A stretch of 64,000 nt of DNA from NCBI GenBank assembly GCA_944383925.1, contig CALWRM010000061.1, positions 1,432-65,431 of the forward strand, in the 5' to 3' direction. Shown in pieces: positions 17,369 through 43,067 of this stretch. The stretch is from an uncultured Clostridia bacterium (GTDB taxonomy: Bacteria; Bacillota; Clostridia; Christensenellales; UBA1750). Numbering within the stretch: position 1 is the first letter of the stretch; each line of letters starts with the position of its first letter. Both the position numbers and the translations under genes were made by a program. Under the pieces are notes generated by a model, which did not search any database, was not told the origin of the DNA, and saw only the letters and a program-made list of their open reading frames with translations.

Positions 17369-17380
17369 GTTGGATGCCTC

Positions 17381-18091
17381 CTAAAGGTTGAATTCTAGCC
17401 GTCTGCAAAAGGTGTATTTGGAAATCGCGCTCCTTTGCGCGGGAATGGAGGAGAGCATGGGCCGGATGAACTCCGGAAAGCGGCGGTCGTACTTGACCTC
17501 CAAGATGACGGTCTCGTTGTGCAGGCAGGGGATGGTCGGCAGGTTCGCGTCGAAGAGGTCCGTGGAAAACAGGCCCGTGCGCAGCTGCTTGTCCAGGGTG
17601 ACGCGGGTGTTTTCCGCCGGATGGGTGTAGGCCTCGCGCACGTAATCCACCACCACCACGGGCTTGAGCAGCCGGGTGGTCATCTGGCGGAACATGTCCT
17701 GCAACAGGGGATGGCCCAGGCGTTCCAGGCCATAGGGATCGCCGGCGATGATCTGCTCGGCCAGGTCCCGGGACAGGGGCACGGACAGCTTGGAGATGTA
17801 GTCGCCCTTTTTCCGCTTGCGCTCCAGCATGATCACCCGGTCCGAGAGGTTGTAGATGCGGATGCGGTACTTATCCCTGTGTTGCACGCCGTCGATCTTG
17901 TCGGACATGGCGGTGTTGAAGCAGTCATCAAAGTACAGGGAGCGGATGTGGTATTCGCCGTATCGGTCGGCGTTTTCGTCGATCCACATGGTGCGGCCGA
18001 GCACCTGGGACAGATAGGCCGCCGACCCTTGGGAAATGTGGTATTTTTGCTCATGCCGCAGGGGCTCGGGCTGTTTCCTTTGCGGGGCCAT
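17381..18091 (-). CDS. VTC-domain (triphosphate tunnel, polyphosphate-polymerase-like) protein (module 1)
   Basis: 236 aa with no TM or signal peptide. HEQKYHIS, YHIRSLYFDD, DKYRIRIYN, LERKRKKGD, ILEVKYD and ISKYTFCR align with the paralog at 36840-37511 and with the Vtc4-type catalytic domain family. Confidence 0.85.
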   Translation of the reverse strand: MAPQRKQPEPLRHEQKYHISQGSAAYLSQVLGRTMWIDENADRYGEYHIRSLYFDDCFNTAMSDKIDGVQHRDKYRIRIYNLSDRVIMLERKRKKGDYISKLSVPLSRDLAEQIIAGDPYGLERLGHPLLQDMFRQMTTRLLKPVVVVDYVREAYTHPAENTRVTLDKQLRTGLFSTDLFDANLPTIPCLHNETVILEVKYDRRFPEFIRPMLSSIPAQRSAISKYTFCRRLEFNL

Positions 18092-18101
18092 GGCTTTCCT
18101 C

Positions 18102-21100
18102 CTAACCCTGCCAGAGCTCGCCGAAGAGCTCCGTCATCTTCTCGTCGCTCAGGCCGAACCAATCCTTCATGTGCTGCATCATGTAGCCCGTGCGGTTGTC
18201 GGCAAACTCGCGCAGGCGGTTCACATGCCTTTGCCAGGACTGAACGGAGCCATGGTCGGGCCAGCGCTCGTAATGGGCCTCCATCTCCGGGGCCATCTGG
18301 CTTTCCAGCTCCTCGATGGCGGCGTAGATGTTCTCCTTGGTGTACACCTCGCGCACGTAGTAGGCGCAGCGCTCGATGAACAGCTCCTCCATCTCCGGGT
18401 TTTCCAGCAGGCCGCGGATCAGGGAATTGTTGAAGCTGTCGTTGTAGCCGGTGCCGTTTTCGTTGAGCACGTGGAGGAAGCCGTCGCGCTTATAGCCGTT
18501 GGTTTCGCCCGTGTTGATGCCCCAATCCAAGTCGTAGAGGATCCATTTCCACTTGCCGCCGGGCACCTTGTAGTACTTGATGTTGCCGTTGTCGGAGTTG
18601 ACCCAGAAGATCTCGGCGATCTGGTAATCGAAGTAGTTGATGATGTCCACCCGGTCGGTGACGTACTTGAGGTTTTCCTCGTCCTTCAGGCTGTGGCTTT
18701 CCACAAAGTCGATCAGCTCCATGTACTCCTCGTTGGTGCCGTTGAGCACGCGGGCGGCCACGTTGCCGTTGCCCTTGAGCAGGTCGATGTTGTCGATTGC
18801 CGTCTCGTCCGTCACGCCCTCCCACTGGGCGATGGACCACTTGTTGACCCTTTCGCGCATGTTGTAGTGTCCCCAGTACTCGCCGTTTAAGTAGAGCACG
18901 CAGACCTCGGTTTCCTGGTACATCACGCCCTGGCCCTCCATCAGGGAGGTCATCATGGCGTCGCGCATGCGGGCGCGGTTGTAGTCCTGGGCCGTGCAGC
19001 GCAGCACGAAGGACTTATAGGAGTCGTAGTCCCGGTCGTCGAAGAGGGCGGCGTTGAAGCGGCTGTCGCCGTATTCCTTTCTGGCGTAGACCGCGAAGGA
19101 CTTCTGGTCCAGGGCCCTGGAATACTGGCCGTTGATCTTAAACTCGGCGCCCTGGGAGAGGAGGGTGGTGCCGTCCTCGTCGAAGATCTCCACATAGACC
19201 GGTCTCTCCCAGTCCATCCAGAAGTTGGCGCCGTAGCCGGGGGAGCCATGGGGAAACTCCTCCTGATAGCCGGGGCCGTCGGCGTAGATGCCCTTTTCGT
19301 CGGAGAAGAGGTTGTCCGGGTCCGTGGATAGGCAGACCACGCGCACGCTGTGGCTCTGGCCGATGATGTAGGTGCCCGTGGTGCTCAAGGGGCTTAAGTA
19401 CCCCTCCTTCACGGCCACGGCGCGCACCACGGTGGTGGAGGAGAGCTGGATGGGCCCGGTGTATGGGGTGCTGGAGACGCTGGGCTCGGTGCAGTCGGTG
19501 GTGTAGTAGATCTGGCTGCCGTCGGACACCGAAAGCTCCAGGCTGAGGCCCTCGTCATACAGGCCGGGGGCCAGAGAAAGGCTCACTTCCTGGGCCACGC
19601 CCACATAGCTTTCGCCCTGGTTGGGCTGGCCGGGGCTGGGCGTTGCGTAATAAAAAAGGCCGAGGTCGTCGCCCCTGCCGTAGGAGATGTCCGTTTGCAG
19701 CGCGGGCACGAGCAGCTTATCCACCATCTGGTCCTGGGCGTCGAACAGGTAGAGGATTTCGCCGGTGGAGCTGGCTCGAAAGGAGGTGCTGAGCTTCCCC
19801 GTCTCCGTGGAGTCCTCGCCCGTCAGGGCCACGACCATCCGCTCGCCGGGGGCCAAGCTCAGCTCCGGAAACTCGAAGCGCCGGGTTCTATCCGGGTTGT
19901 TGGAAAGTCCCCAGCCGCCCAGGTTGACGGTCTGGCCGGAGTTGTTGACGATCTCGGCGTAGTCCACGGCCTGGTCGTTCACCAGCGTCTCGCCCGCGGA
20001 GGAGAGCACCTCGGAGATGTAGACGCCCTGGTTGTTCAGGCGAAAGAAGTCGTCCAGCACGCTCAGGCCGTTTTCCGCCGTGTTGGCAAGGCCGGGGGTG
20101 GGGGCGTTGGTCTCCTGGTAGCCGCCGTCCTCCTGCCTGGCGTAGGCACAATCGTCCTTCAGCTCCGGCAGCTCCACCCGATCCAGCAGGTATCCCTGGG
20201 CGTCGCGCAGGCTGATGTTCTCCCCGCTGGCGGAGATGGCGAAGTTGGTGTGGAAGGTCTGGCCATCCTGGCTGTTTAGGTTGTCGCAATAGACCACCAG
20301 CATCTCGCCTGGGGCGATGGACCCGGAGGCAAAGCGCCACTGCATGGGTTCGTTGTCGTCGTCCGTGAGGGCATAGCCGCTCAGGTCGATGGTTTCCGTG
20401 CCCAGGTTGATCAGCTCGATCCAATCGGGGTAGGCGCCGTTTTCGTCGGCCAGGGTGCTGGCGTTGGAGGACTGGACCTCGTTGATCTTTAGGCTGCTTT
20501 GCGCCCGCAGGTCGAAGGAGGCCAGGTAGCTGTCGTGCCCCTCCTGGGTGTTGGGGTAGCCGGGGGAATAGAGGGTCGTCTCCTCAAAGCCGGTCTCCTG
20601 GTGGATGTAGGAGCTGTTGACGGCCGTCTGGGGCAGCTCCACCTGGTCGGCCAGGGAGGAGCCGTTGAACAGGTAGAGGGTCTCGCCGGCCTTGAGCCTA
20701 AAGCTGGCGTGTAGGGAGGCGGAGGCGGCGTTTCTGGACTTGCCGGAGAGATAGACCACCAGGTATTCGCCGCTGCCCAGCTCCATGCTGGGCAAGGGGA
20801 ACTTGGCGGGGTTGTCGCTGCGATCGGAAAGGGCGTAGCCGCTCAGGTTGATGGCCGCGGCGGTGCCGTTGTACAGCTCCACCCAATCCGGGTACTCCCC
20901 GTCGTCGTCCATCACGGCGCCCTCGTTGGCGATCATCACCTCGGAGATGATCAGCCCGGTGGTGGTCATTTCCAGCTGTCCGTCCGCGCCCTCGCCCACG
21001 CCGGCGATGGCCGGGGCCAGCTCCTTGTTGAGGGCATAGAACACAAAGGTGACGGTGATGGCCACCAGGAGCACTATGTTCAAGACCACCAGGCCTTTTC

Positions 21101-21107
21101 TCTTCAT
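18102..21107 (-). CDS. membrane-anchored CotH kinase family protein with three lamin-tail-like (LTD) repeats
   Basis: Trimmed to MKRKGLVVLNIVLLVAITVTFVFYAL (AGGAGGG upstream). Three repeats of the type EV..(N/S)...DWVELYN...L.GY.LSD. C-terminal CotH region SFVLRCTAQDYNRARMRD...LYLNGEYWGHYNMRERV. Confidence 0.85.
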   Translation of the reverse strand: MKRKGLVVLNIVLLVAITVTFVFYALNKELAPAIAGVGEGADGQLEMTTTGLIISEVMIANEGAVMDDDGEYPDWVELYNGTAAAINLSGYALSDRSDNPAKFPLPSMELGSGEYLVVYLSGKSRNAASASLHASFRLKAGETLYLFNGSSLADQVELPQTAVNSSYIHQETGFEETTLYSPGYPNTQEGHDSYLASFDLRAQSSLKINEVQSSNASTLADENGAYPDWIELINLGTETIDLSGYALTDDDNEPMQWRFASGSIAPGEMLVVYCDNLNSQDGQTFHTNFAISASGENISLRDAQGYLLDRVELPELKDDCAYARQEDGGYQETNAPTPGLANTAENGLSVLDDFFRLNNQGVYISEVLSSAGETLVNDQAVDYAEIVNNSGQTVNLGGWGLSNNPDRTRRFEFPELSLAPGERMVVALTGEDSTETGKLSTSFRASSTGEILYLFDAQDQMVDKLLVPALQTDISYGRGDDLGLFYYATPSPGQPNQGESYVGVAQEVSLSLAPGLYDEGLSLELSVSDGSQIYYTTDCTEPSVSSTPYTGPIQLSSTTVVRAVAVKEGYLSPLSTTGTYIIGQSHSVRVVCLSTDPDNLFSDEKGIYADGPGYQEEFPHGSPGYGANFWMDWERPVYVEIFDEDGTTLLSQGAEFKINGQYSRALDQKSFAVYARKEYGDSRFNAALFDDRDYDSYKSFVLRCTAQDYNRARMRDAMMTSLMEGQGVMYQETEVCVLYLNGEYWGHYNMRERVNKWSIAQWEGVTDETAIDNIDLLKGNGNVAARVLNGTNEEYMELIDFVESHSLKDEENLKYVTDRVDIINYFDYQIAEIFWVNSDNGNIKYYKVPGGKWKWILYDLDWGINTGETNGYKRDGFLHVLNENGTGYNDSFNNSLIRGLLENPEMEELFIERCAYYVREVYTKENIYAAIEELESQMAPEMEAHYERWPDHGSVQSWQRHVNRLREFADNRTGYMMQHMKDWFGLSDEKMTELFGELWQG

Positions 21108-21289
21108 GGAAACCCTCCTGTAAAATAGCACGCTTTCGCGCTTTTCCGCGCAGTTGTCAGTGTAACATAGCAACGGGCGAAATGCAAACACAATCCCCTA
21201 TATTGCGGCCATTTTCGCCCTTCCACCAGGGAAGACGAGTGATTTGGGGCAAAAGTTTCGCATTTTTCGCCGCGGTCCGCGGGTAAAAA

Positions 21290-22445
21290 AAGGCAGGGGC
21301 CGACGGGCGCCCGGCCCGCCGGCCCAACCCCCCCGGCGCGACCGGCACGGGAAGAGGGCCCAGCGGCCGGACAAAGGCGACGCACTTCGGCCCTTCCATA
21401 AAAAGGACCCGCAGGGCGCTTGGTCCCCGGGCCCCTTGCCTTGTTCCCCTCGCCCGCCATCCCAGCCGCCCGCGCCCGCTGGCAACGCCGCCTAGCCTCG
21501 GCGCGACAGGCGCGGGGAAGGGTTCCGCAGCCGGGCCGCTTCTTCCCTCCCTCTCCCGCCATCCCGGCCGCCCGCGCCCTTGCCAACAGGTTTGCGGGGG
21601 AAAGGGGCCCAGCGGCCGGGCAAAGGCGACGCCCCTCGACCCTTCCATAAAAAAGGACCCGCTGGGCGCTTGGCCCCCGGGTCCCTTGCCTTGTTCCCTT
21701 CGCCCGCCATCCCAGCCGCCCGCGCCCGCTGGCAACGCCGCCTAGCCTCGGCGCGACAGGCGCGGGGAAGGGTTCCGCAGCCGGGCCCCCTTTTTCCCTC
21801 CCGCGCACGCCAACCCGGCCGCCCGCGCCCGCTGGCGACGCTACCCCTATGCCACGGCGCGACCAGTGTGGGAAATAGGCCCCGCAGCCGGGCCGCTTCT
21901 TCCCTCCCTCTCCCGCCAACCCGGCCGCCCGCGCCCTTGCCAACAGGTTTGCGGGGGAAAGGGGCCCAGCGGCCGGACAAAGGCAACGCCCTTCGACCCT
22001 TCCATAAAAAAGGACCCGCAGGGCGCTTGGCCCCCGGGTCCTTTGCCTTGTTCCCTTCGCCCGCCATCCCAGCCGCCCGCGCCCGCTGGCGACGCTACCG
22101 CCATGCCGCGGCGCGGTCGGCGCAGGGAAAGGGCCCCGCAGCCGGGCCCCTTCTTCCCCCACCCGCCATCCCGGCCGTCCGCACCCTTGCCAACAGGTTT
22201 CGCAAGGAAAGGGTTCCAGCGGCCGGACAAAGGCGACGCCCTTCGGCCCTTCCATAAAAAGGGCCCGCTGGGCGCTTGGCCCCCGGGTCCCTTGCCTTGT
22301 TCCCCCACCCGCCAACCCAGCCGCCCGCGCCCTTGCCAACAGGTTTCGCGGGGAAAGGGGCCCAGCGGCCGGACAAAGGCAACGCCCTTCGGCCCTTCTA
22401 CAAAAAAGGACCCGAAGGGCGCTTGGCCCTCCGGGTCTCATCCTC
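21290..22445. repeat. tandem array B: mosaic of two module types (about 103 bp and about 147 bp), at least 8 modules
   Basis: The anchor CCCGCCA(T/A)CCC(A/G)GCCGCCCGCGCCC recurs at about 21452, 21556, 21701, 21800, 21913, 22060, 22160 and 22307. It is followed either by GCTGGC..GGCGCGGGGAAGGGTTCCGCAGCCGGGCC or by TTGCCAACAGGTTT..GGCCGGACAAAGGCGACGCCCTTCGGCC..ATAAAAAAGGACCCGC..GGGTCC. Confidence 0.85.
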
Positions 22446-22469
22446 CCTCGCCTACCAAACCGCCCGCGC

Positions 22470-23063
22470 CTACAGGCTGGTGCGGCCGCGCATGGCCCGG
22501 GAGAGGGTGATTTCGTCGGTGTATTCCAGGTCGCTGCCCACGGGCATGCCATGGGCGATGCGGCTGACGCGAAGTCCGAAGGGCTTGAGCAGCCGGGCGA
22601 TATAGGCGGCGGTGGCCTCCCCCTCGATGTCGGGGTTGGTGGCCAGAATGACCTCCTCCACGCCGTCCAGACGGCCCAACAGCTCCTTGATGGCGATATC
22701 CTCCGGGCCAACGCCTTCCATGGGGGAGATCACCCCATGGAGCACGTGGTACAGTCCGTTGTAATCCCGGGTGCGCTCCATGGCGGCCACATCCCTGGGA
22801 TCGCGCACCACGCAAAGCAGCCTGCGGTCGCGGCGCTCGTCCCGGCAGATGGCGCAGCGCTCCTCGTCGGTGTAGTTACCGCATACGCTGCAGCGGCGCA
22901 CGCTCTGGCGCGCCTGCAGGATGGCCTGGGCCAGGGCCTCGGCCTCCTCCTTGGGTTGGGCCAGGAGAAAATAGGCCAGGCGCTGGGCGCTCTTGCGGCC
23001 GATGCCCGGCAGCTTGGACAGCTGGGCCACCAGGCGCTGCAGGGAATCGATCTGCTCCGCCAT
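22470..23063 (-). CDS. recR: recombination protein RecR
   Basis: 197 aa. [17 protein letters not shown] (HhH), [16 protein letters not shown] (zinc finger), Toprim region [16 protein letters not shown]. Confidence 0.95.
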
Positions 23064-33970: not shown

Positions 33971-33999
33971 ATTATACAAAACGCACCGCCAAATGTCAA
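33971..33999 (-). promoter_or_regulatory. consensus sigma-A-type promoter for scpAB
   Basis: Minus strand TTGACA (33999-33994), a 17-nt spacer, then TATAAT (33976-33971), about 50 nt upstream of the scpA ATG. Confidence 0.65.
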
Positions 34000-34079
34000 A
34001 GCGCCTTTGCCCGGCGCCCCCAAAGACAAGAGGGCGGGCCCGCCCCCTTTCGGGAGCGGGCCCGCCGCCCAGGTCCTTG

Positions 34080-36095
34080 TCATACGCGCTTTGGATAGAA
34101 GAAGGCCACCAAAATGCCGGCCAGCAGCACCGCCGCGCAGATGCCCGTCAGCGCCCAGCCTTCCCCGCTCCCGGCGCTGGAGGCGGCGTTCCCGCCCGAG
34201 GAGACGTCGAAGCCCCCCTCAAACGAGCCGCGGCCGCCGCCGCCCTCGGGCGGTTCCATGGCCTGGCCGCCGTCCCCGGGCGCTTGCCCGGACGACGTCT
34301 CCTCGCCGCTCAGGGTTTGCCAGCGGCCGCCCCCGCCGGGCCCGCCGCCCGGCTGCCCAAAGCCCGTGGCCAGGGTCTCCCCGGCTTGGGATTCGCTTCC
34401 CTCGCCCTGGTCCTCCCCGGCCTGGTCTTCCCAGTCCTGGTCCTTCCGGCCGCCCTGGCCGCGGTCCATTCCGCCGCCCATGCCGCCCATGTCGGAAATG
34501 TTCAGGTCGGAGGCGTCCACCAGCTGGCTATCCGCCTGTTGCTGGCCCTCGGAGCTGGAGGGGACGGTCCCCTCCAGCTGGCCCCGAACGCTCTGGGCGC
34601 GCAGCTGGCAAAACTCCACCAGGGTGTCAAAGCCCGTCTCAAACTCCTCGTAGCTGCAGAACTTGGTGGGGTCCTTTTCCACATACGGGGCGATGAGCTC
34701 GTAGGTCTGCTGCATCATCTCCTCGAAATAGCCGCTCTCAAAGTAGCTTTCAAGGAAGTCGGAGAAGTACTGGTGGTAGAGCTGGGTGTACTCCTCGTCC
34801 GAGAAGATCCAGGCCAGCATGGGTCTGGAATCCACCGAGCCGCCGGAAACGGGGGTGTCGATGGGGTAATTGACCAGCGAGGTGGCGTCCTGGGCGCCCA
34901 TGAAGCCGCCAAAGGCCAGGTTATAGTCCCAGGGGATCATGGAGAGGGCGCCGTCCTCCTCGTAGAGGTAGTAGTTGTGGATCATGGAGCCGGTGTAGCT
35001 GTCGAAGTTGCACACGAAGTTGTGCACCACGAAGTAACGGATCACCTCGTCCATGTCCAGCACCTGCTCCAGGTTTTGCTGCTCGTTCAGCTGGCGCAGG
35101 GAGTCGATGAGCCTTTCCTTGTCGGCGTCGGTGATGTCGGTCTTGGCGTTGTCAAAGATGTTGGCGTAGCTGTCGTAGTCCTCGTCGCTGTAAATCAGGG
35201 ACACGTCCGTTGAACCCATGCCGCCAAAGCCGCCCCAGCCGCCGCCAAAGTTGGCAAAGTCCTCCATCGCTTCCAAACCCTCGAAACCTTCGAAACCTTC
35301 AAAACCCTCGAAGCCGCCTTCGCCGGGCGGCGTTCCGCCGTCTGGCAAATCCGTTGGAGTTATAGGGCCTTCGTCTTGGCCCTGGTCCTGCCCGTCCTGC
35401 TCCTCCTGGCCGTCCTGGGCGTCCTGCCGCCACTGGTCCATGTCGAAGTCGCGGCCGTTGCCCCGGCCGCCGCCCATGCTGATGCTGTCCGGCTTATAGA
35501 GCTGGCCGTAATCGTTCCCGTAGTTGCGCTGGAGGAAGGCCTCCTCCACGCCCTCCACCGCCAGATACAGCCCAAAATCCTGGCCGTTGACCGTGACATA
35601 CACGAAGCTGCACAGAGGGGCGTCCACGCCAAAGGCGTTCATCATTTGGTAGCTAAGGTAGTCCTTCATGTAGGTATTGTCCTGGATGAGGTTGTTGAGG
35701 CAGAGCTTATCCAAGCCGTGGTAGCTGATGGCGCTATCGTAATGGTCAAACTCGATCTTAAAGCTGTAGCGGTCGTTCCCGTAGCTGGCCACCTGGGTCA
35801 GGGAGGTGTTGCCCTTGGCCCGGATGGCCACGTTGCTATAGGTTTCCTGGTCGATGACCACGGTGCACAGGGCGTACTCCTCCGAGGTGCAGGTTTCCAG
35901 GAAGCCTTCCCAATCGTCCATCCGGATGTCGATGGTGTGCACGGTGCTGGTGTCAAACAGCCTGGACTCATAGCCCATGGTTCTGGAGGCGGCCTGAACG
36001 CCCAGGCTCTCGGCGTTCATGAACAGCACGGTGATGACCAGCGTGGCCGCCAGGACGAGGTAGCAAATTCGATCGATGGCCTTGTGCGTGGACAT
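34080..36095 (-). CDS. CotH kinase family protein with N- and C-terminal membrane anchors (module 2)
   Basis: Start set at MSTHKAIDRICYLVLAATLVITVLF (GGAGG 8 nt upstream). CotH core RYSFKIEFDHY...CLNNLIQDNTYMKDYLSY...VTVNGQDFGLYLAVE. Internal acidic insert containing GFEGFEGFEGFEG. Gly/Glu/Gln-rich tail, then the TM span LTGICAAVLLAGILVAFFY. Confidence 0.85.
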   Translation of the reverse strand: MSTHKAIDRICYLVLAATLVITVLFMNAESLGVQAASRTMGYESRLFDTSTVHTIDIRMDDWEGFLETCTSEEYALCTVVIDQETYSNVAIRAKGNTSLTQVASYGNDRYSFKIEFDHYDSAISYHGLDKLCLNNLIQDNTYMKDYLSYQMMNAFGVDAPLCSFVYVTVNGQDFGLYLAVEGVEEAFLQRNYGNDYGQLYKPDSISMGGGRGNGRDFDMDQWRQDAQDGQEEQDGQDQGQDEGPITPTDLPDGGTPPGEGGFEGFEGFEGFEGLEAMEDFANFGGGWGGFGGMGSTDVSLIYSDEDYDSYANIFDNAKTDITDADKERLIDSLRQLNEQQNLEQVLDMDEVIRYFVVHNFVCNFDSYTGSMIHNYYLYEEDGALSMIPWDYNLAFGGFMGAQDATSLVNYPIDTPVSGGSVDSRPMLAWIFSDEEYTQLYHQYFSDFLESYFESGYFEEMMQQTYELIAPYVEKDPTKFCSYEEFETGFDTLVEFCQLRAQSVRGQLEGTVPSSSEGQQQADSQLVDASDLNISDMGGMGGGMDRGQGGRKDQDWEDQAGEDQGEGSESQAGETLATGFGQPGGGPGGGGRWQTLSGEETSSGQAPGDGGQAMEPPEGGGGRGSFEGGFDVSSGGNAASSAGSGEGWALTGICAAVLLAGILVAFFYPKRV

Positions 36096-36111
36096 GGATG
36101 GCACCTCCGGC

Positions 36112-36783
36112 TCAGCCCGTATAGTCGCCGTTGTAGCTGACCAGCACGGCGCTGGAGACGCCGTTCATCTCCGAGAGGATGTTGACAAAGTCGGTGTTGT
36201 CGTCCCGCATGCGCACCTCCACGTTCAGCTCCACGGCGCCCTGCTGGGTGGTCATGCTCTTGACCACGCAGCGATCCACCTGCTTTTTCAAAAACTCGGT
36301 GGCGGCCAGCTCGCTGTCGTGGTTTTCGCAGCGCAGCACCACGATGTAGGGCTTGGTGTGGGCCTTGCGGTTGGCGAAGACCAGCAGCACGATGCCGATG
36401 GCCACGCTGCCGAACACCGCCAGGGGAAACAATCCGGCGGCCAGCACGATGCCCGCGGCGATGGCCCAAAAGAGGAAGGCGATGTCCATGGGTTCCTTGA
36501 TGGCCGTGCGAAAGCGCACGATGGAAAGGGCGCCCACCATGCCCAGGGACAGCACCACGTTGGAGGTGACCGCCAGGATGACGAAGGTGGAGATCATGGT
36601 CAGGGCCACCAGCGTGACCCCAAAGCCGGCCGAATACATCACGCCGGAAAAGGTCTTCTTATAGATGAGGAAGATGAACAGCCCGATGCCAAAGGCCAGA
36701 ACCAGCGCCAGGGCCATATCCAGGAAGGACACGCTCGCGATGTTTTCTAAAAAGCTGGACTTGAAGATGTCGTTGAAGGTCAT
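36112..36783 (-). CDS. DUF4956 family membrane protein (module 2)
   Basis: C-terminal 223 codons of ORF 36112..37245, starting MTFNDIFKSSFLENI. GMVGALSIVRFRTAIKEPMDIAFLFWAIAAG. Paralog of 16670-17368. Confidence 0.85.
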   Translation of the reverse strand: MTFNDIFKSSFLENIASVSFLDMALALVLAFGIGLFIFLIYKKTFSGVMYSAGFGVTLVALTMISTFVILAVTSNVVLSLGMVGALSIVRFRTAIKEPMDIAFLFWAIAAGIVLAAGLFPLAVFGSVAIGIVLLVFANRKAHTKPYIVVLRCENHDSELAATEFLKKQVDRCVVKSMTTQQGAVELNVEVRMRDDNTDFVNILSEMNGVSSAVLVSYNGDYTG

Positions 36784-36839
36784 GGTCTTGAAAGCTCCTT
36801 TTCTTCGTTTTTCGTGGGGGTTTGCCCGTCTTCCTCTGC

Positions 36840-37511
36840 CTAGTCGTAGACGCGGCAGGCGGCGTATTTGGAGAAGGCGGCGGTGTGGCTTTGGGGGATC
36901 TGCACGATGTCCCGCACGATGGAGGGCAAAAAGCTGTCCCATTTGACCTCCAGCACGATGGGTGCGTCCCGCGCGGGGATGGTGACGCAGCGCGGGTTGA
37001 GAAAGTCGGTGCAGCCTAGGCCCGTGCGGATGTTGTAATCCAGCGTGACCCGCACGTTGCCGGGGCCAAAGACGAAGGGCTCGCGGGTGTAGTCCACGAT
37101 GGTGCGGGGCCGCAGCCCTTGGGAGAGCATCTTTCGCCGCAGCTCCTGCACCAGGGGATCCTGCGCGCCCTCCAGGGCCTGGGGGTCGCCCAGCGCCAGC
37201 GCCCGGGCTCGCCTCTCCTCCAGCCTCGCCTGCTCCTTGGCGCAAAGGCCGTTGATCTTGCGCTTCTTCTCCAGCAGCAGCAGGGACGTGTCGCCGTTGT
37301 AGTAGCGGATGCGGAACTTTTCCCGGTTGTTCACCCCGTCGATCTTCTCGCGCAGGGCCTTATCCTGCAGGTTGTCGAAGTAGAGGCTGCGGATCTCATA
37401 CCGGCCGTCGATGGCGTGGCTGTCCCGGCGCATCACCGCCGCCAGCCGGGGCCGCAGGGCCAGCAGATCGCCGTAGGCGATTTCGTGCTTCCATTCATAT
37501 CGAAAATCCAT
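36840..37511 (-). CDS. VTC-domain (polyphosphate-polymerase-like) protein (module 2)
   Basis: Trimmed to MDFRYEWKHEIAYGD. YEIRSLYFDN, EKFRIRYYN, LEKKRKINGL, VLEVKWD, FSKYAACR. AGGAGGAG upstream. Confidence 0.85.
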   Translation of the reverse strand: MDFRYEWKHEIAYGDLLALRPRLAAVMRRDSHAIDGRYEIRSLYFDNLQDKALREKIDGVNNREKFRIRYYNGDTSLLLLEKKRKINGLCAKEQARLEERRARALALGDPQALEGAQDPLVQELRRKMLSQGLRPRTIVDYTREPFVFGPGNVRVTLDYNIRTGLGCTDFLNPRCVTIPARDAPIVLEVKWDSFLPSIVRDIVQIPQSHTAAFSKYAACRVYD

Positions 37512-37563
37512 GCCCGTTTTTCTGCTCCTCCTTTCCAGGCGTCTGGTCGCGTTCACGGGCTTT

Positions 37564-37597
37564 AGCATAGCCCACCAACCTTAGAACAAACTTAGAA
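37564..37597 (-). promoter_or_regulatory. candidate response-regulator-dependent promoter (pho-box-like direct repeat plus -10)
   Basis: Minus strand TTCTAAG-TTTG-TTCTAAG (37597-37591 and 37586-37580, 11-bp period), then 10 nt, then TATGCT (37569-37564). No recognisable -35. The -10 lies about 50 nt upstream of the VTC ATG. Confidence 0.45.
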
Positions 37598-37604
37598 AGA
37601 AGAA

Positions 37605-37633
37605 GGAGATCCACAACAAAATTGTGAATCTCC
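37605..37633 (-). terminator. hairpin terminator after the histidine kinase gene
   Basis: Minus strand GGAGATTCACAATTTTGTTGTGGATCTCC followed by TTCTTCTTTCT. Confidence 0.55.
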
Positions 37634-37661
37634 TATAAACAAATTATGAATGCCCCGCGCT

Positions 37662-38906
37662 TTACAGTCGAAGTTTGAAAATGATTCTGGAATTTTGTCC
37701 ATATTCCGCATCGAGCCTTCCGCCGTTGGCCTGCGCGAGGGCCCGGGCGATCGACAGCCCGATGCCGTACCCCCCGTCCTTCTGGTTTCTGGCGTCGTCC
37801 CCCCGGTAGAAGCGCTCGAACAGCTTCTCCGGCTCGGCGTCGGGCAGCTTCGCGCAGCTGTTTTCCAGCCGCAGCAGCGCGCCGCCCTCCCCTTTGGAAA
37901 GCTCCACCAGGATCTGGCCGCCCTGGTCGGCGTGCTTGACCGCGTTGTCCAGCAGGAGGGAGAGCAGCTGCTCCAGCTGGGCCCTGTCCGCGCGCACCCG
38001 CAGCCCCGGCTCCAGCTGGGCTTGCAGCCGCAAGCCCCTTTGCTCCATGGCCTCCGCATAGCCCTCCAGCGTCCGCTCCACCAGCTCGTCCAGGCGCAGC
38101 TCCGTGGGATGGGGCTGGGCCGCTCCCTCGTCCATGCGGGCCAGGGCCAGCAGGTTCTGCATCAGCCCGGCCAGGCGCACGGTCTGCTCGCGGATGTTGC
38201 GGCTCCACTTGTTTTCCCCGTTGTACAACTCCATGGCCTCCACGTTGGCCTGGATGATGGCCAGGGGGGTTTTGATCTCGTGGCCGGCGTTGGTCACGAA
38301 GCGGCGCTGCCGTTCCATGTTCTGGGCGATGGGGCGGATGGCCCGCTTGGACATTAGGCTCACCAGCAGCAGCATCAGCCCCCAACAGGCCAACCCCACG
38401 CCGCAGGAAAGCAGCAGCACCCGCACGAAGGAGCGCCGCTCCCAGGAGGTATCCAGGAACACCGCAAAGCTCCCCTCGCCCTGGGCGCTGGGCGCCAGGC
38501 GGAAGCGGAAGTCCCCGCGGCGGCCGGAGGAAAGGCCCTGGTCGTAGGCCTCCTGGGCCCATTGCAGGGCCTGCTCCCGGCTCACCTGGGAGGTGCGGCT
38601 GACGTCCGCCCGCACGGCCGCGCCCTCCTCGTCGAAGCGCACCACGAAGAAGTTGGAGGCCATGAAGGTGTCGTAGGCATTTGGGGGAGCGCTCCAGGCC
38701 GGCTCGTGCGGCGGCAGAAACGCCGGCGCGCCGGTCAGCTTGCCGGCGTCGCCCTCGCTGCGGGTGAGGATCTCCAATGTCTGCTCGATCTGCCCGCCCA
38801 CCAGGGCGATGTTGGCGGCGTTGATGGCGCCAAGCAGCAGCAGGATCAGCACGCTCACGGCCAGCATGGAGATCCACAGGAACTTCCTCTGCAAGGTCCT
38901 AATCAT
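37662..38906 (-). CDS. sensor histidine kinase (two TM spans, about 130-aa extracytoplasmic loop, HisKA + HATPase_c)
   Basis: 414 aa. H-box FVTNAGHEIKTPLAII, N-box LLDNAVKH, G-boxes GGYGIGLSIA. Confidence 0.9.
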   Translation of the reverse strand: MIRTLQRKFLWISMLAVSVLILLLLGAINAANIALVGGQIEQTLEILTRSEGDAGKLTGAPAFLPPHEPAWSAPPNAYDTFMASNFFVVRFDEEGAAVRADVSRTSQVSREQALQWAQEAYDQGLSSGRRGDFRFRLAPSAQGEGSFAVFLDTSWERRSFVRVLLLSCGVGLACWGLMLLLVSLMSKRAIRPIAQNMERQRRFVTNAGHEIKTPLAIIQANVEAMELYNGENKWSRNIREQTVRLAGLMQNLLALARMDEGAAQPHPTELRLDELVERTLEGYAEAMEQRGLRLQAQLEPGLRVRADRAQLEQLLSLLLDNAVKHADQGGQILVELSKGEGGALLRLENSCAKLPDAEPEKLFERFYRGDDARNQKDGGYGIGLSIARALAQANGGRLDAEYGQNSRIIFKLRL

Positions 38907-39576
38907 CCGCCACCTCCAGGGTATAGCCCACGTTCCGCTTGGCCGCGATGCGCACCTTGCTCCGCAGGGCGGTCAACCGCTTGCGCAGATAGGAGATGTA
39001 GACCCACACCGTGCCAAGCTCCGCCTGGGTGTCGTAGCCCCACACCTTGCACAGCAGGTCCTCGGTGGACAGGTAGATGCCCCGGTTGAGCATCAGCAGC
39101 TCCATCAGCTGAAACTCCAGCTTGGGCAGCAGGAAGCTCCGGCCGTTGCCGGACAGCTCATAGCTGCTCCTGTTGAGGGAAAGGTCGCCGCAGCACAGCA
39201 CGTCGGGGGTAAAGGCCTCCCGGCGGCGCAGCAGGGCGCGCACCCTGGCCAGCAGCAGCTGCATGGAAAAGGGCTTGGGCAGGTAATCGTCCGCGCCCAG
39301 ATCCAGGCCCTGGATCTGGTCCTCCACCTCCGCCTTGGCCGTGAGCAGCAGCACGGGCGTGCGGCAGCCGGCCGCCCGCAGCCGGCGGAGCACCTCCAGC
39401 CCGCTCAGGCCCGGCATCATGATGTCCAGGATGATGCCGTCGTAGCGCTCCGCCTGGGCGAAGGCCAGGGCGTCGGTTCCGTTGTACACCGCGTCCACGA
39501 TGTATTTGTGGTAGCTCAGGATGTCCACCACCGCCTCGGACATGCTCCGCTCGTCCTCTGCGTAGAGCAGCTTCAT
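38899..39576 (-). CDS. OmpR/PhoB-family response regulator
   Basis: 225 aa. Receiver domain (DGIILDIMMPGLSG, LLLTAK) plus a winged-helix output domain (VWVYISYLRKRL...VGYTL). Overlaps the kinase gene by 8 nt. Confidence 0.92.
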   Translation of the reverse strand: MKLLYAEDERSMSEAVVDILSYHKYIVDAVYNGTDALAFAQAERYDGIILDIMMPGLSGLEVLRRLRAAGCRTPVLLLTAKAEVEDQIQGLDLGADDYLPKPFSMQLLLARVRALLRRREAFTPDVLCCGDLSLNRSSYELSGNGRSFLLPKLEFQLMELLMLNRGIYLSTEDLLCKVWGYDTQAELGTVWVYISYLRKRLTALRSKVRIAAKRNVGYTLEVADD

Positions 39577-39660: not shown

Positions 39661-40224
39661 CTAGGCCTGGCCCAGCAGGTGTTCCACCAGGATCTTCACC
39701 CCCAGCAGCACCAGGATGGCGCCGCCGGCCAGCTCCGCCCAGCGCTTGCACCGCATGCCCAGCAGGCTACCCAGCTTCACGCCGACGGTGGACAGCGTCA
39801 GGGTGGTGACGCCGATGAAGCTGACCGCCGCGGCCACGTTCACCCGCAGGAAGGCGAAGCTCACGCCCACGGCCAGGGCGTCGATGCTGGTGGCCACGGC
39901 CAGGGGCAGCATGGCCTTGCAGGAAAGGGAGGCGCTGGCCTCTTCCTCCTCCTTGGACAGGGCCTCGCGCACCATGTTCAGGCCGATGAGGGCCAACAGG
40001 CCGAAGGCGATCCAGTGGTCAAAGGCCATGATCTGGTCCTTGAACTGGTCGCCCAAGAAGGCGCCAAGCAAGGGCATCAGGGCCTGAAAGCCGCCAAACC
40101 ACAGCCCCGCCACCAGGGCCTGGCGCCAGCGCGCCCGGCCGATGGCCAGTCCCTTGCAGACCGACACGGCGAAGGCGTCCATGGAAAGCCCGACGGCCAA
40201 GGTGATCAGCTCAAAAAAACCCAT
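39661..40224 (-). CDS. mntP: manganese efflux pump MntP
   Basis: Trimmed to MGFFELITLAVGLSMDAFAVSV. Second half-repeat ATSIDALAVGVSF. GGAGGG lies 8 nt upstream. Confidence 0.88.
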   Translation of the reverse strand: MGFFELITLAVGLSMDAFAVSVCKGLAIGRARWRQALVAGLWFGGFQALMPLLGAFLGDQFKDQIMAFDHWIAFGLLALIGLNMVREALSKEEEEASASLSCKAMLPLAVATSIDALAVGVSFAFLRVNVAAAVSFIGVTTLTLSTVGVKLGSLLGMRCKRWAELAGGAILVLLGVKILVEHLLGQA

Positions 40225-40254
40225 CAAAACATCCCTCCTGCCTTTGTCTATAAC

Positions 40255-40435
40255 AAAAAAACCCACGGGAAGCGCTGGAGGACGGCTTGTCCCCCGCGCT
40301 TCCCGTGGGTCTCGTTTATTAAGGCAACACCAGGCCCTATCCGCCTACAGCGGCGGGAAAGGTCCAGCGTGTTGGTATTGCCGCGATCTTCGCCCGCCGG
40401 CGAACCGCCAACTACTCCCCCACGGCCGATCTCGA
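40255..40435 (-). promoter_or_regulatory. yybP-ykoY (Mn2+) riboswitch with terminator expression platform
   Basis: Minus strand contains GGGGAGUAG (40424-40412 region) and the 3-prime signature GGACCUUUCC (40365-40355). This is followed by ACCCACGGGAAGCGC...GCGCUUCCCGUGGGU plus U7 (about 40312-40255), immediately upstream of mntP. Confidence 0.72.
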
Positions 40436-40492: not shown

Positions 40493-41281
40493 TCACTCCA
40501 ACAGCCTGGCGCAGACGACCATTCGTCCGTTTTCCGTGGAGTATTCGCAGGTGGACAGGGTCAGCAGCTTTTCTCCGTATTCGGGAACGATGTTTAAGGG
40601 ATATAGGGACATCTCCAGCATTTCGGCGATGCCCTCGTCGAACTCCTCCTTCGTGGCGGGGTCCAGGAAGCGGTAATAGCGGAAGCCCGTCTCCGTGGTC
40701 TTGAGCACCCGCGCCGTAAAACAGGCGAAGATCTCGTAGCATTCCACGCCCTGGTCCGTGGCGAAATAGATCAGGGGATGTTTCTTGTAGAAGACCTCGT
40801 CCTTGTAGCTGAGCAGGTCCGCGAACATGGATCCGTTCTTCATGTTGTGGCCATGGAGCAGCCAATTGACGCTCCTGGGCTCGGTGGAGCAGGCGCCGTC
40901 CAGAAAGATGGAGCCCTCCACCGCGTACTTCTCGTCAAAGCCCAGATACAGGTAGTACTCGTTGTCCCCGGGCACGTGCATCACGGGCGAGGCGATGTTG
41001 GTGTCCGGCACGTACACATAGCCGATGCAGTCCTCGTTCTGCTCCATCAGCTCCTTGGCCTGCTGGGCCTCCTCGGGCAACGCCTCCTCCGGCGTCGCCT
41101 GCACCGTGGCGCTGGGCGGAACGCTGGCCGTCGGGCTTGGTGCGGGGCTGGCCGCCGGGCTTGGTTCGGGGCTGGCCTCCGGGCTGCTCTGGGGCAGCTG
41201 GTCCTGGGCCATGCACCCGCTCAGCGCCGCGCACAGGCACAGGGCCAGCGCCAATGCCCGCAGCCTTCCTCGTCTCGTCAT
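40493..41281 (-). CDS. srtB: class B sortase with lipoprotein-type signal peptide
   Basis: C-terminal 262 codons of ORF 40493..41566: MTRRGRLRALALALCLCAALSGC (lipobox), Pro/Ser/Ala linker, NEDCIGYVYVPDTNIASPVMH, LLHGHNM, catalytic LTLSTCEY. Confidence 0.85.
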   Translation of the reverse strand: MTRRGRLRALALALCLCAALSGCMAQDQLPQSSPEASPEPSPAASPAPSPTASVPPSATVQATPEEALPEEAQQAKELMEQNEDCIGYVYVPDTNIASPVMHVPGDNEYYLYLGFDEKYAVEGSIFLDGACSTEPRSVNWLLHGHNMKNGSMFADLLSYKDEVFYKKHPLIYFATDQGVECYEIFACFTARVLKTTETGFRYYRFLDPATKEEFDEGIAEMLEMSLYPLNIVPEYGEKLLTLSTCEYSTENGRMVVCARLLE

Positions 41282-41426
41282 ACAAACAGCCTTCCTTTCC
41301 TGCCGCCGCCCCACTCTGGGGCGGGAAGGGCGCGGCCGCTCCGGCCGCGCCCTTCCTCCTCGCCCAGCCTCCCGGCCGGGACGCCTGCGGCGCTCTTCTA
41401 TTTTTGCTTGAGGCGCCCTGCCCGGC

Positions 41427-43067
41427 TTAGCGCATGGCGCGGCGCTTGGATACCAGCAGGCAGGCAAGCCCGGCCAGGGCCAGCGCGGACAGGCCGAGGG
41501 CCGCCGCCAGGGGCGCCTCGTCCCCCGTCTTGGGCACGTCGTCGTAGCCGGCGTTGGTCTTTTCAAACTGCACGTAGATCTTGTGGTCCGCGGATACCTT
41601 GGAGAAGGTGTACTGTCCGCCGACGGTGCCGGTCTTCACCCCGTCCACGTACACGGCCAGGATGGAATAGCCGCTCTTGGGCGCGAAGGACACCGTCAGC
41701 GAGCCGTCCGCGCTCACGCGGGTGTAGCCCGAGGGGCTCACGCTGCCGCCGCTGCTGCAATCGGCGTAGATGTAGTAGTAGCTCTGGGAGGAGCTACCGC
41801 CGCCGCTGCCGCCGCCCACGGGATTGCCCGGGATGGCGGACATCTTCTTCCACTCGGCGGTGAGGGTCAGAACCGTCCCGCTATTGGGCTTATCGGGCGC
41901 CTTCACGGCGGCTTTGGCCTTATAGAGCTCCTTGTCCCAGCTGGCGCGCCAGCCCTGGAAGATGAACCCGGAGCGAGAGGGCGCCGCGGCGGTGGTGAAC
42001 TGGTTGCCCGCGCCCACGGTGACCGGATTGGAAGTGGAATCGGGCATGCCGCTCACGCTGTCGCTGGCGTCGGTCTTGTACTCGATCGTAAGGGCAAGCA
42101 CCGCCTTCAGGGTTTCAAGCACGATATCGCCGCTCACGTCTTCGATGGTGTACTTGCCATCGCTGCCCCTATTGGCGGTTTTTTTCTCTCCATCCATCGT
42201 ATAGCTGATGGTATCGGGCAGGACATAGCCCTTATTTGCGGTGAAGCTCACCACAACCTTGCCGCCCTTGGGCACGTTCGCGTTGTCGGAGGCGGGCTTA
42301 CCGTCGCTGGCGTAGGACAAGACGCTGTATCTATCCTCAACCACCGAAGTTTTGTCCACAGGGGTGTCATTCAGCTTTACGCCAAAGCTGTCGGCTTCGT
42401 CCGCATTAGCTTTTTCGGCGGTGAACTGAACAAACGTGATGTCACTGGAAACATTCTCCAGGGTGTAAACGCCGTTTTCGCCTGTAACGGTCTGATTGGT
42501 GTTGTACTTGATCGTTTCGGGGTACTGGTAGCCGGCCTGCAGCTCCAGCCGTACCACAACCTTGCCGCCTTCGTTGACCTCGCTATTGTCTTCATTGTTA
42601 AAGCTGCGGTTGGGGTTGTCGTAGGATAGGATGGAATAGCTGGCGATGCCCTCTCCCTTCCCAGTCTCTTTTACAGTATAAGTCGTTACTTCATTTTTTG
42701 CAGTCACCTGCTGGATCGTGATATTCCCCTGGATGTCCAAAATCGTTCCCTTGCCGTCGGCATCCAGCTTCAGCGTCTGCGCGGTTCCTGTATCGCCTAC
42801 CGTATACTGAATCTCGGTGGGCGATTTGTGTCCGGTCTTGGCCACAAACTGCACCTGCACGGAACCGCCCACGGGCACGGCATTTGCTTCGGCCTTCTTT
42901 CCCTCCGTATCGTAGCAATAGATGCCGAAATAGTAGAAATTGTCCGAATCGTCCGGCAACTTTCCACCATAGGAGACTTTAACATTTCCCGCAAAGGCCA
43001 CGGGCGTCAGCCCCAGCAGCAGGGTCAGGGCCAGCAGCAGGGCAAAAATGGTTTTGCTTCGTTTCAT
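41427..43067 (-). CDS. sortase-anchored surface protein (three about 100-aa repeats, Listeria-Bacteroides-type repeat, VPKTG sorting signal)
   Basis: 546 aa. Signal peptide ending VAFAG. Repeated GGKVVV..F.A..GY..P..I.Y segments. SGFIFQGW. C-terminus VPKTGDEAPLAAALGLSALALAGLACLLVSKRRAMR. Confidence 0.8.
   Translation of the reverse strand: MKRSKTIFALLLALTLLLGLTPVAFAGNVKVSYGGKLPDDSDNFYYFGIYCYDTEGKKAEANAVPVGGSVQVQFVAKTGHKSPTEIQYTVGDTGTAQTLKLDADGKGTILDIQGNITIQQVTAKNEVTTYTVKETGKGEGIASYSILSYDNPNRSFNNEDNSEVNEGGKVVVRLELQAGYQYPETIKYNTNQTVTGENGVYTLENVSSDITFVQFTAEKANADEADSFGVKLNDTPVDKTSVVEDRYSVLSYASDGKPASDNANVPKGGKVVVSFTANKGYVLPDTISYTMDGEKKTANRGSDGKYTIEDVSGDIVLETLKAVLALTIEYKTDASDSVSGMPDSTSNPVTVGAGNQFTTAAAPSRSGFIFQGWRASWDKELYKAKAAVKAPDKPNSGTVLTLTAEWKKMSAIPGNPVGGGSGGGSSSQSYYYIYADCSSGGSVSPSGYTRVSADGSLTVSFAPKSGYSILAVYVDGVKTGTVGGQYTFSKVSADHKIYVQFEKTNAGYDDVPKTGDEAPLAAALGLSALALAGLACLLVSKRRAMR

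Follow-up and report, generated by a model that had tools for sequence, protein, structure and literature searches.

A stand-alone VTC-DUF4956 cassette with an exchangeable third protein and predicted two-component control in gut Clostridia

A stretch of 64,000 nucleotides from an uncultured Clostridia bacterium (assembly GCA_944383925.1, contig CALWRM010000061.1; the whole 64-kb stretch is called the window here) carries on its minus strand five genes that encode a response regulator, a sensor histidine kinase (HK2), a VTC-domain enzyme (VTC2), a DUF4956 membrane protein and a CotH-family protein (CotH2). These genes make up module 2, and the last three form the cassette that is the subject of this work. 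A second cassette of a different type, module 1, lies elsewhere in the window. Comparison with related genomes points to a cassette whose invariant core is VTC plus DUF4956 and whose third component is a conserved double membrane anchor carrying a replaceable ectodomain. An earlier note on this DNA, made from the sequence without database searches, had proposed the trio as an undescribed system. That proposal does not stand, since the same gene set has already been published with Gram-positive pel operons (PMC7112168, PMC12345266) and is visible in NELoc-2 of C. perfringens (PMC2879425). What is new is the stand-alone form, the probable two-component control matched to a promoter box, and the VTC plus DUF4956 core with its exchangeable ectodomain. 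Module 2 is read here, tentatively and with slightly less than even confidence, as a signal-induced three-gene cell-envelope cassette of a polyphosphate type.

The VTC-DUF4956 core and its exchangeable third protein

All five minus-strand open reading frames (ORFs) of module 2 and their domains were found by an ORF check and by Pfam where the earlier note had placed them (Table 1). The cassette was then surveyed with one genome per species. At least 595 loci encode VTC2 relatives, and the best 80 of these (60-77% identity) were analysed with 10-kb flanks; ORFs were called locally and searched with the window proteins and with a hidden Markov model (HMM) derived from them. The surveyed families include Oscillospiraceae, Lachnospiraceae, Acutalibacteraceae, Butyricicoccaceae and others. 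DUF4956 is located immediately 3' of VTC in 78 of 81 species and less than 2 kb away in two more, and it is absent in one. A large ORF begins a few nucleotides past DUF4956 in every one of the 74 loci with enough sequence. When the neighbouring ORFs were clustered, only VTC, DUF4956, the third gene, the kinase and the regulator recurred. Trios also occur around DUF4956 proteins that are only 35-37% identical, in either gene order. The DUF4956 family is large, with 5,386 clusters at E <= 1e-3 and 2,392 at E <= 1e-10 in a 50%-identity library.

The third gene encodes CotH in 52 of the 74 loci and a Cthe_2159 protein, a carbohydrate-binding beta-helix protein, in the other 22 (30%). The Cthe_2159 assignment was obtained with Pfam for all seven proteins tested, with E values from 1e-60 to 1e-89. 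The two types share their first 34 residues, which consist of MSTHKxIDKIC, a transmembrane (TM) helix and LFMNGExLGI. Over residues 1-34 the identity between the types is 52%, equal to the level within each group, and over residues 35-102 it drops to 5-8%. Most third proteins of both types end in an acidic, glycine-rich stalk, a TM helix and a basic tail. CotH and beta-helix are joined in one polypeptide at one locus (L089).

CotH is thus not obligatory, because Cthe_2159 replaces it on the same membrane anchors, and it is on this basis that VTC plus DUF4956 is taken as the core. Since the anchor is conserved while the ectodomain diverges, it is the anchor and not the ectodomain that the core would appear to need. 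This pattern is the strongest sequence-level hint that the anchor of the third protein contacts the VTC/DUF4956 core in the membrane. The earlier note had argued that VTC, DUF4956 and CotH act as a functional unit. The conserved contiguity of the genes across several families, and not in one lineage only, bears this out in part; the full trio as proposed does not hold, as CotH is swapped in 22 of the 74 loci. With the third gene taken as either type, it is very likely that VTC, DUF4956 and the third gene act together.

Several candidates that arose in the survey were set aside. The 22 beta-helix genes were considered as a second CotH subfamily, which was rejected because Pfam identifies them as Cthe_2159; their weak matches to the CotH2 HMM are explained by the shared anchors and low-complexity stalk. 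Two loci that seemed to be without CotH (L007 and L013) were ruled out as such, as scaffold N-gaps lie inside the gene. A few metagenome gene calls (P0304, P0376, P0256 and P0342) fuse pieces of the cassette, either VTC with DUF4956 or DUF4956 with CotH. These are single clusters that look like read-through or frameshift chimeras, and rare genuine fusions are possible.

The architecture of CotH2 described in the earlier note was recovered with Pfam and hydropathy. The protein begins with MSTHKAIDRIC and a TM segment at residues 10-28. The Pfam CotH match is in two stretches, which are split by an acidic, glycine-rich insert of 95 residues with (GFE)4 at residues 261-272. A low-complexity stalk rich in Gly, Glu, Gln, Asp and Ser covers residues 505-650, and a second TM segment at 648-666 is followed by the tail YPKRV. 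There is no LTD domain by Pfam. This topology predicts that the CotH domain is extracytoplasmic, between two TM anchors. Among contigs of the same species, CotH2 has lengths of 671, 678 and 713 residues (the related loci include L085 6689-8830 and L086 6689-8725), with a nearly identical enzyme domain. The length varies in the stalk (34080-34600 of the window), where a (GGM)n run and an EDGGQAAEPP repeat differ in copy number.

The two-component system and the cassette promoter

The gene for the response regulator overlaps the kinase gene by 8 nt, and the receiver aspartate of the regulator is D51, in an LDIMMP motif. HK2 has TM segments at residues 10-28 and 163-181 and its H-box histidine is H209. 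By hydropathy, the extracytoplasmic loop has 134 residues, in good agreement with the figure of about 130 in the earlier note. No Pfam domain was found in this loop, and it is conserved in cassette-adjacent kinases of 9-11 other species (E 1e-14 to 1e-31). The pair is not PhoB/PhoR, as the PhoB model gives 161 bits with a cut-off of 296 and the PhoR model 137 bits with a cut-off of 334. The best NCBIfam matches of the regulator (RppA, PhoB and others) all fall under the curated cut-offs, and the regulator and kinase also score under the cut-offs of every other named system. HK2 differs from E. coli PhoR in its long outside loop.

Directly after the stop codon of the kinase gene, between the regulator operon and the cassette, is a hairpin with a T-rich tail, which as a terminator would insulate the operon. 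In the direction of the genes, the hairpin is followed by a direct repeat, 9 nt, the hexamer TATGCT, a ribosome-binding site and the ATG at 37511. Public metagenome gene calls start VTC2 at the ATG at 37568, which gives a protein of 242 residues. That start is probably wrong, because the predicted -10 hexamer contains this ATG and because almost every orthologue is 223 residues long, with a start equivalent to 37511. An exact-sequence look-up of VTC2 gave no match.

PhoB-type activation sites consist of two 7-nt repeats with an 11-bp period, and they replace the -35 element about 10 nt 5' of the -10 element. The repeat in the window, which can also be written TCTAAGT-N4-TCTAAGG, occupies the usual -35 place. 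Since its geometry matches that of PhoB-type sites, the adjacent regulator is likely to activate the cassette promoter directly. The likeness to the pho-box promoters of PhoB/PhoR extends to the 4-nt gap between the two 7-nt repeats, the replacement of the -35 element and the OmpR/PhoB type of the regulator; however, the half-site here is (T)CTAAG, and not CTGTCAT or TTAACA.

The same arrangement is found in other species. Nine other loci with a kinase like HK2, sensor loop included, were examined, and they show a hairpin, a T run, CTAAG-N6-CTAAGG, a spacer of 8-9 nt and a TATAAT-like hexamer. The core CTAAG-N6-CTAAGG, called box A, occurs in the 64-kb window once without mismatch, and with at most one mismatch there are 26 matches in 2.43 Mb of loci. 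Box A is found at -52 to -69 relative to the VTC start (at -100 in one case) wherever the kinase is HK2-like, and it never occurs in loci with the other kinase family. The loci of this second kinase family all have TTCAAT-N5-TTCAAT followed by a TACAAT -10 element, and across loci the type of box and the type of kinase are never mixed. A third repeat type, TTCAGC-N5-TTCAGC, is carried by several loci with a divergent regulator, and many loci of the Cthe_2159 type carry TTTAAG-type repeats. A generic test for a 7+4+7 repeat with at least 6/7 identity and TAnnnT 6-11 nt downstream was positive in 38 of 83 upstream regions, compared with 1.5 +/- 1.2 (maximum 6) in shuffled sequences. The two-component control that the earlier note had suggested is therefore supported, as a prediction from sequence, by the terminator of the kinase gene and by a promoter repeat that co-varies with the kinase family across species.

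Of 61 loci, 24 have the regulator pair next to the cassette (18 co-directional and 6 divergent), 10 have it at a distance of up to 4 kb and 27 are without it within that range. An adjacent two-component system is not obligatory. Several loci, that of P. phocaeensis among them, have no regulator pair beside the cassette and still carry box A at the same distance from VTC. In the window, the regions 5' of the regulator gene and of module 1 do not contain box A, so neither autoregulation nor control of module 1 is claimed. No Rfam family was matched in the window at gathering thresholds, and thus there is no known riboswitch in the cassette leader.

Some variations were seen at individual loci. 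The predicted TACAAT -10 element is inside the 5' arm of the kinase terminator hairpin in L008, L010, L018, L045, L075 and L081. For the second kinase family, transcripts from the cassette promoter would lack the full hairpin, and read-through from the kinase gene would terminate. In Butyricicoccus porcorum (L003, 5527-6770) an IS3-type element with rve and HTH_Tnp_1 domains lies between the kinase gene and VTC; in a second assembly of this species (L004) the two genes are adjacent. The regulator gene is called short in both assemblies (159-164 residues) and looks truncated or frameshifted.

The second cassette and the neighbourhood of both cassettes

The earlier note had reported another VTC/DUF4956/CotH trio in the window, with CotH as the leading gene. 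Pfam confirmed both the trio, at 16670-21191, and its permuted order. The true start of the module-1 CotH is probably the Met at ORF residue 29, at about 21107. The pairs of VTC motifs quoted in the note are present in both VTC proteins. By BLASTP, the two VTC proteins are 39% identical with 55% positives and the two DUF4956 proteins are 39% identical with 62% positives. The DUF4956 pair, which had been called the closer one, is therefore equal in identity and has only a marginal lead in positives. For the CotH pair, the similarity found by BLASTP is not significant (E 0.085). The description of module 2 as a diverged and permuted copy of module 1 holds for the similar VTC and DUF4956 proteins but not for the CotH proteins, which are dissimilar and differ in architecture and anchors. 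A cassette of the module-1 type with the same architecture and order (LTD-CotH, VTC, DUF4956) is present in another genome (L087), in a different neighbourhood. Modules 1 and 2 are better described as two distinct cassette types, because their CotH parts are unrelated by BLASTP and each type has its own orthologues and a fixed gene order elsewhere.

Table 1. Features of modules 1 and 2 in the window (positions are those of the whole stretch)
Feature	Position	Strand	Evidence or remark
Response regulator, OmpR/PhoB family, 225 aa	38899-39576	-	Pfam Response_reg E 4e-28, Trans_reg_C E 2.5e-17
Sensor histidine kinase (HK2), 414 aa	37662-38906	-	Pfam HisKA and HATPase_c
Intrinsic-terminator-like hairpin, 14-bp stem, T-rich tail	37604-37634	-	Scan; RNA fold, folding energy (dG) -19 kcal/mol, z -5.8
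Direct repeat TTCTAAG-TTTG-TTCTAAG(G), predicted regulator site	37579-37597	-	7+4+7 nt, 11-bp period
Predicted -10 element TATGCT	37564-37569	-	Read from sequence, 9 nt 3' of repeat
VTC-domain triphosphate-tunnel enzyme (VTC2), 223 aa	36840-37511	-	Pfam VTC E 1e-34
DUF4956 membrane protein, 223 aa	36112-36783	-	Pfam DUF4956 E 2e-9
CotH-family kinase-like ectoprotein (CotH2), 671 aa	34080-36095	-	Pfam CotH E 2e-64
Terminator-like hairpin at cassette end, 15-bp stem, 14 GC pairs	34033-34066	-	Scan; dG -45.6 kcal/mol, z -6.6
Sigma-70 promoter for scpA, perfect consensus TTGACA-17 nt-TATAAT	33971-33999	-	Just past cassette terminator
Module 1, second cassette, different type	16670-21191	-	Pfam
Module-1 CotH: 3 LTD, CHB_HEX_C and CotH, 1029-aa ORF	18102-21191	-	Pfam
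Module-1 VTC (VTC1)	17381-18091	-	Pfam
Module-1 DUF4956	16670-17368	-	Pfam

Module 2 is flanked by genes for MntP, a sortase and a surface protein on one side and for ScpA, ScpB and FtsK on the other. The MntP manganese-efflux gene (39661-40266, minus strand) is directly 5' of the regulator gene. The yybP-ykoY riboswitch, which is frequent ahead of mntP, was not found at the Rfam threshold anywhere in the window. The sortase gene (40493-41566, minus strand) adjoins the gene for a repetitive surface protein of 546 residues (41427-43067, minus strand), whose C-terminus has VPKTGD, a hydrophobic stretch and a basic tail and resembles a cell-wall sorting signal. The closest protein relatives belong to gut Clostridia of the Oscillospiraceae type, such as Pseudoflavonifractor and Butyricicoccus. 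In metagenome contigs of the same species, the DUF4956 protein is identical and the genes from the surface protein to ScpB are in the same order. PADLOC defence models gave no match for VTC, DUF4956 or CotH.

Module 1 is located between RecR, YbaB, RNase Y, RecA and CinA on one side and a GTPase, YraN and a large PMT-type glycosyltransferase on the other. A GC-rich tandem-repeat array (21695-22437; periods of about 106, 146 and 250 nt, 81-88% matches) occupies most of the gap of about 1.3 kb from recR (22470-23063, minus strand) to the module-1 CotH. Long ORFs within this array, for example 21104-22711, have no Pfam match and look spurious. The PMT-type protein, of 1245 residues (10915-14652, minus strand), has membrane domains like those of protein O-mannosyltransferases and weak GT87 and F5/8 type C matches. 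It may serve in envelope glycosylation, and it does not recur with the cassette elsewhere.

Possible functions of the cassette

VTC2 consists of a VTC domain only and, by Pfam and hydropathy, has no TM segment and is soluble. As a single sequence it had no match in the PDB. A profile of 10 sequences was needed to reach yeast Vtc4 (3G3Q, E 1.7e-6), and it aligns R67 and R69 with R264 and R266, E81 and K83 with E279 and K281, and E188 with E426. Seventeen basic residues are invariant in VTC, and R67, R69, K83 and E188 are at invariant positions. An AlphaFold2 (AF2) model of VTC2 has a predicted local distance difference test score (pLDDT) of 87 and a predicted template modelling (pTM) score of 0.86, and its 13 best fold matches in the PDB are all tunnel domains of yeast Vtc4, Vtc2 and Vtc3 (E 4.5e-12, TM-score 0.72). 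From the alignment and the model, it seems moderately probable that VTC2 makes polyphosphate. Like the yeast VTC complex (3G3Q, 7YTJ, 8I6V), the cassette has the tunnel fold with R264, R266, K281 and E426 matched, and a small multi-pass membrane protein accompanies the catalytic tunnel domain. In contrast to the yeast complex, VTC2 has no SPX domain and its tunnel domain is a separate soluble protein with about 20% identity; the membrane partner is the MgtC-like DUF4956 and not the DUF202-type helices of Vtc1, Vtc3 and Vtc4.

VTC2 could instead be a hydrolase of triphosphate or nucleoside triphosphates, or a cyclase, like the TTM/CYTH enzymes, in which case the cassette would be a signalling or detoxification module. 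ygiF, CYTH cyclases and triphosphatases are also significant fold matches of VTC2, and the first strand of VTC2 has R-x-E-x-K, which resembles the ExExK of the CYTH enzymes. However, these folds rank below the VTC proteins, the Pfam family is VTC and not CYTH, and the Vtc4 residues named above are matched. A hydrolase or cyclase is considered quite unlikely.

The DUF4956 protein has about five TM helices followed by a C-terminal beta-alpha-beta-beta-alpha-beta domain, which is ACT-like, and this is an MgtC-like architecture. The NCBIfam MgtC/SapB model PRK09977 matches residues 71-211 with E 1e-9 and 38 bits, where the cut-off is 214. The AF2 model has six helices at low confidence (pLDDT 61), and only its C-terminal domain gave fold matches in the PDB that could be interpreted. 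The best of these is the C-terminal domain of MgtC (2LQJ), with ACT domains next. An invariant stretch of the protein, LSLGMVGALSIVRFRTAIKEPMD, has R90, R92 and K96 in a loop, which by the positive-inside rule would be on the cytoplasmic side. The multi-helix membrane domain followed by an ACT-like cytoplasmic domain is shared with the MgtC/SapB/YhiD family. DUF4956 differs from that family in its signature motif (SIVRFRTAIKEPMD), in a score far under the family cut-off and in being always paired with VTC.

CotH2 matches B. cereus CotH (5JD9) with E 1e-12. Its residues D365, N374 and D390 correspond to motifs of the catalytic loop and of metal binding, and each of the 45 CotH2-type orthologues tested retains them. 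Mutation of D228 or D251 inactivates B. subtilis CotH (PMC7821199), and the equivalents of both are retained in CotH2. CotH2 shares with the Bacillus spore-coat Ser/Thr kinase the Pfam family and the equivalents of the catalytic D228 and the metal-binding D251. However, the Bacillus enzyme acts within the mother cell on CotB and CotG, whereas CotH2 is membrane-anchored and predicted to face outward, and CotH2 has in addition the acidic insert and the long stalk.

A function in sporulation or the spore coat was considered by analogy with Bacillus CotH. The family name suggests it, the host lineage includes spore formers, and in Butyricicoccus spore genes are near the cassette. The predicted location of the CotH domain, anchored outside the membrane at both ends, does not agree with such a role, nor does a promoter of the sigma-A type with an activator box in place of a sporulation-sigma promoter. 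CotH is also replaceable by a beta-helix protein, and the same trio occurs in non-sporulating streptococci and bifidobacteria (PMC7112168). A spore-coat function is very improbable and was rejected.

The closest published relatives of the cassette are accessory genes of Pel biosynthesis. Whitfield et al. (2020) reported that in streptococci, clostridia and bifidobacteria pelDEADAFG adjoins accessory genes, namely cotH, a polyphosphate polymerase gene, DUF4956 and usually DUF4832 (PMC7112168). In S. intermedius these are SIR_1594, a secreted CotH-like kinase, SIR_1593, a VTC-like polymerase, and SIR_1592, which has an MgtC-type membrane domain and an ACT domain (PMC12345266, mBio 2025). In C. 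perfringens NELoc-2, genes for VTC, DUF4956 (annotated as tubulin/FtsZ) and CotH are near a gene for a chitin-synthase-like glycosyltransferase (PMC2879425), and VTC and DUF4956 are co-regulated in vivo. The cassette described here has in common with the pel accessory set the three contiguous families and the predicted locations, with CotH secreted or extracellular, VTC cytoplasmic and DUF4956 in the membrane with an ACT-like tail. It differs in having its own two-component regulator and an activator-type promoter, and no pel genes nearby in the window. In addition, CotH2 lacks an FN3 domain and is held by a TM anchor at each end, and the cassette comes without a DUF4832 hydrolase gene. The authors of the S. 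intermedius study stated that the three-gene arrangement was not found outside pel loci (PMC12345266). This view is corrected here, as the trio is stand-alone in these Clostridia.

It follows from the literature that the trio might be an accessory set for a Pel-like or other exopolysaccharide, which would tune its production or modification, with the polysaccharide genes elsewhere in the genome. Besides the linkage to pelDEADAFG (PMC7112168) and the position of the NELoc-2 genes (PMC2879425), deletions of SIR_1592 and SIR_1594 alter the Pel level and aggregation in S. intermedius (PMC12345266). The domains that accompany or replace CotH (LTD, CHB_HEX_C, beta-helix and Cthe_2159) are typically glycan-binding, which suggests a surface glycopolymer as the target, and the L089 cassette adjoins sugar epimerases and a GT2 gene. 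On the other hand, no pel or other polysaccharide-synthase gene is beside either cassette in the window, where the neighbours are housekeeping genes. No polysaccharide or pel-like cluster recurs across 82 related loci, and the cassette moves with its own regulator as a unit among unrelated neighbourhoods. An exopolysaccharide accessory role is regarded as unlikely.

A different possibility is that VTC and DUF4956 produce or control a pool of polyphosphate or energy inside the cell. DUF4956 would then affect the homeostasis of ATP or phosphate as MgtC does, and the surface protein would only be co-regulated, with nothing handed over physically across the membrane. This would fit a soluble, cytoplasmic VTC. 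The MgtC family acts on ATP synthase and PhoR and not in transport (as cited in PMC12345266), and the same authors suggest that polyphosphate may remain cytoplasmic. Co-regulation alone can hardly explain why a gene for an ectoprotein is adjacent in all 74 loci, or why the N-terminal anchor is conserved despite the swap of the ectodomain. An intracellular pool is also judged an unlikely explanation.

In the mechanism that is proposed for the signal-induced envelope cassette, a signal outside the cell would lead to a phosphorylated regulator that binds the repeat and switches on VTC, DUF4956 and CotH as a single transcript. At the inner membrane face, VTC would use ATP to build the phosphate polymer. 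DUF4956 would hold VTC at the membrane and pass polymer or phosphoryl groups outward, probably with the help of the two anchors of the third protein. Outside, the tethered ectodomain may bind or use the product on a surface glycopolymer or protein. In the CotH type, phosphorylation would become possible in a compartment without ATP. The steps of this scheme are not equally probable. Export of the product through a complex of VTC, DUF4956 and the anchors is doubtful, and the use of polyphosphate as a donor by CotH is improbable. It is likewise improbable that the full scheme applies, in which VTC plus DUF4956 would be a third bacterial polyphosphate route, independent of PPK1 and PPK2, that works as a minimal VTC complex threading the polymer outward to an ectodomain that uses or binds it.

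Several points weigh against a polyphosphate-type envelope cassette. The equivalent of Vtc4 K200 could not be aligned, and the first strand of VTC2 is nearer to that of the hydrolases and cyclases; K200 and S457/K458 of Vtc4 are outside the aligned stretches, and R4 and S214-K215 of VTC2 are candidates for them by position only. A literature search for a bacterial VTC-domain protein that has been characterised or makes polyphosphate found no paper. The confidence of the DUF4956 model is too low for a claim of a pore, and relatives of MgtC are known as regulatory proteins and not as channels. As the third protein is a non-kinase beta-helix in 30% of loci, phosphoryl transfer by CotH is not the general output. 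The predicted -10 element TATGCT is weak. Finally, deletion of the VTC gene SIR_1593 in S. intermedius gave no aggregation phenotype, which misfits a strict linear pathway (PMC12345266).

To our knowledge, bacterial polyphosphate is thought to arise solely from PPK1 and PPK2. A 2026 preprint has described extracellular polyphosphate in the B. cereus group that is independent of PPK and whose source is unknown; its authors state that B. cereus is without a VTC4 homologue (PMC13484657), and therefore the cassette cannot be the source of that polyphosphate. For a pathway of this kind in other Gram-positive bacteria, a widespread enzyme that has the Vtc4 fold and is always paired with a membrane protein and a protein predicted to face outward is an obvious candidate. 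A third route, if true, would give Gram-positive bacteria a genetic source of extracellular polyphosphate. The cassette is common in gut Clostridia, and the predicted regulator box and the swappable ectodomain offer entry points for its study, namely an inducible promoter, contact surfaces and natural domain swaps.

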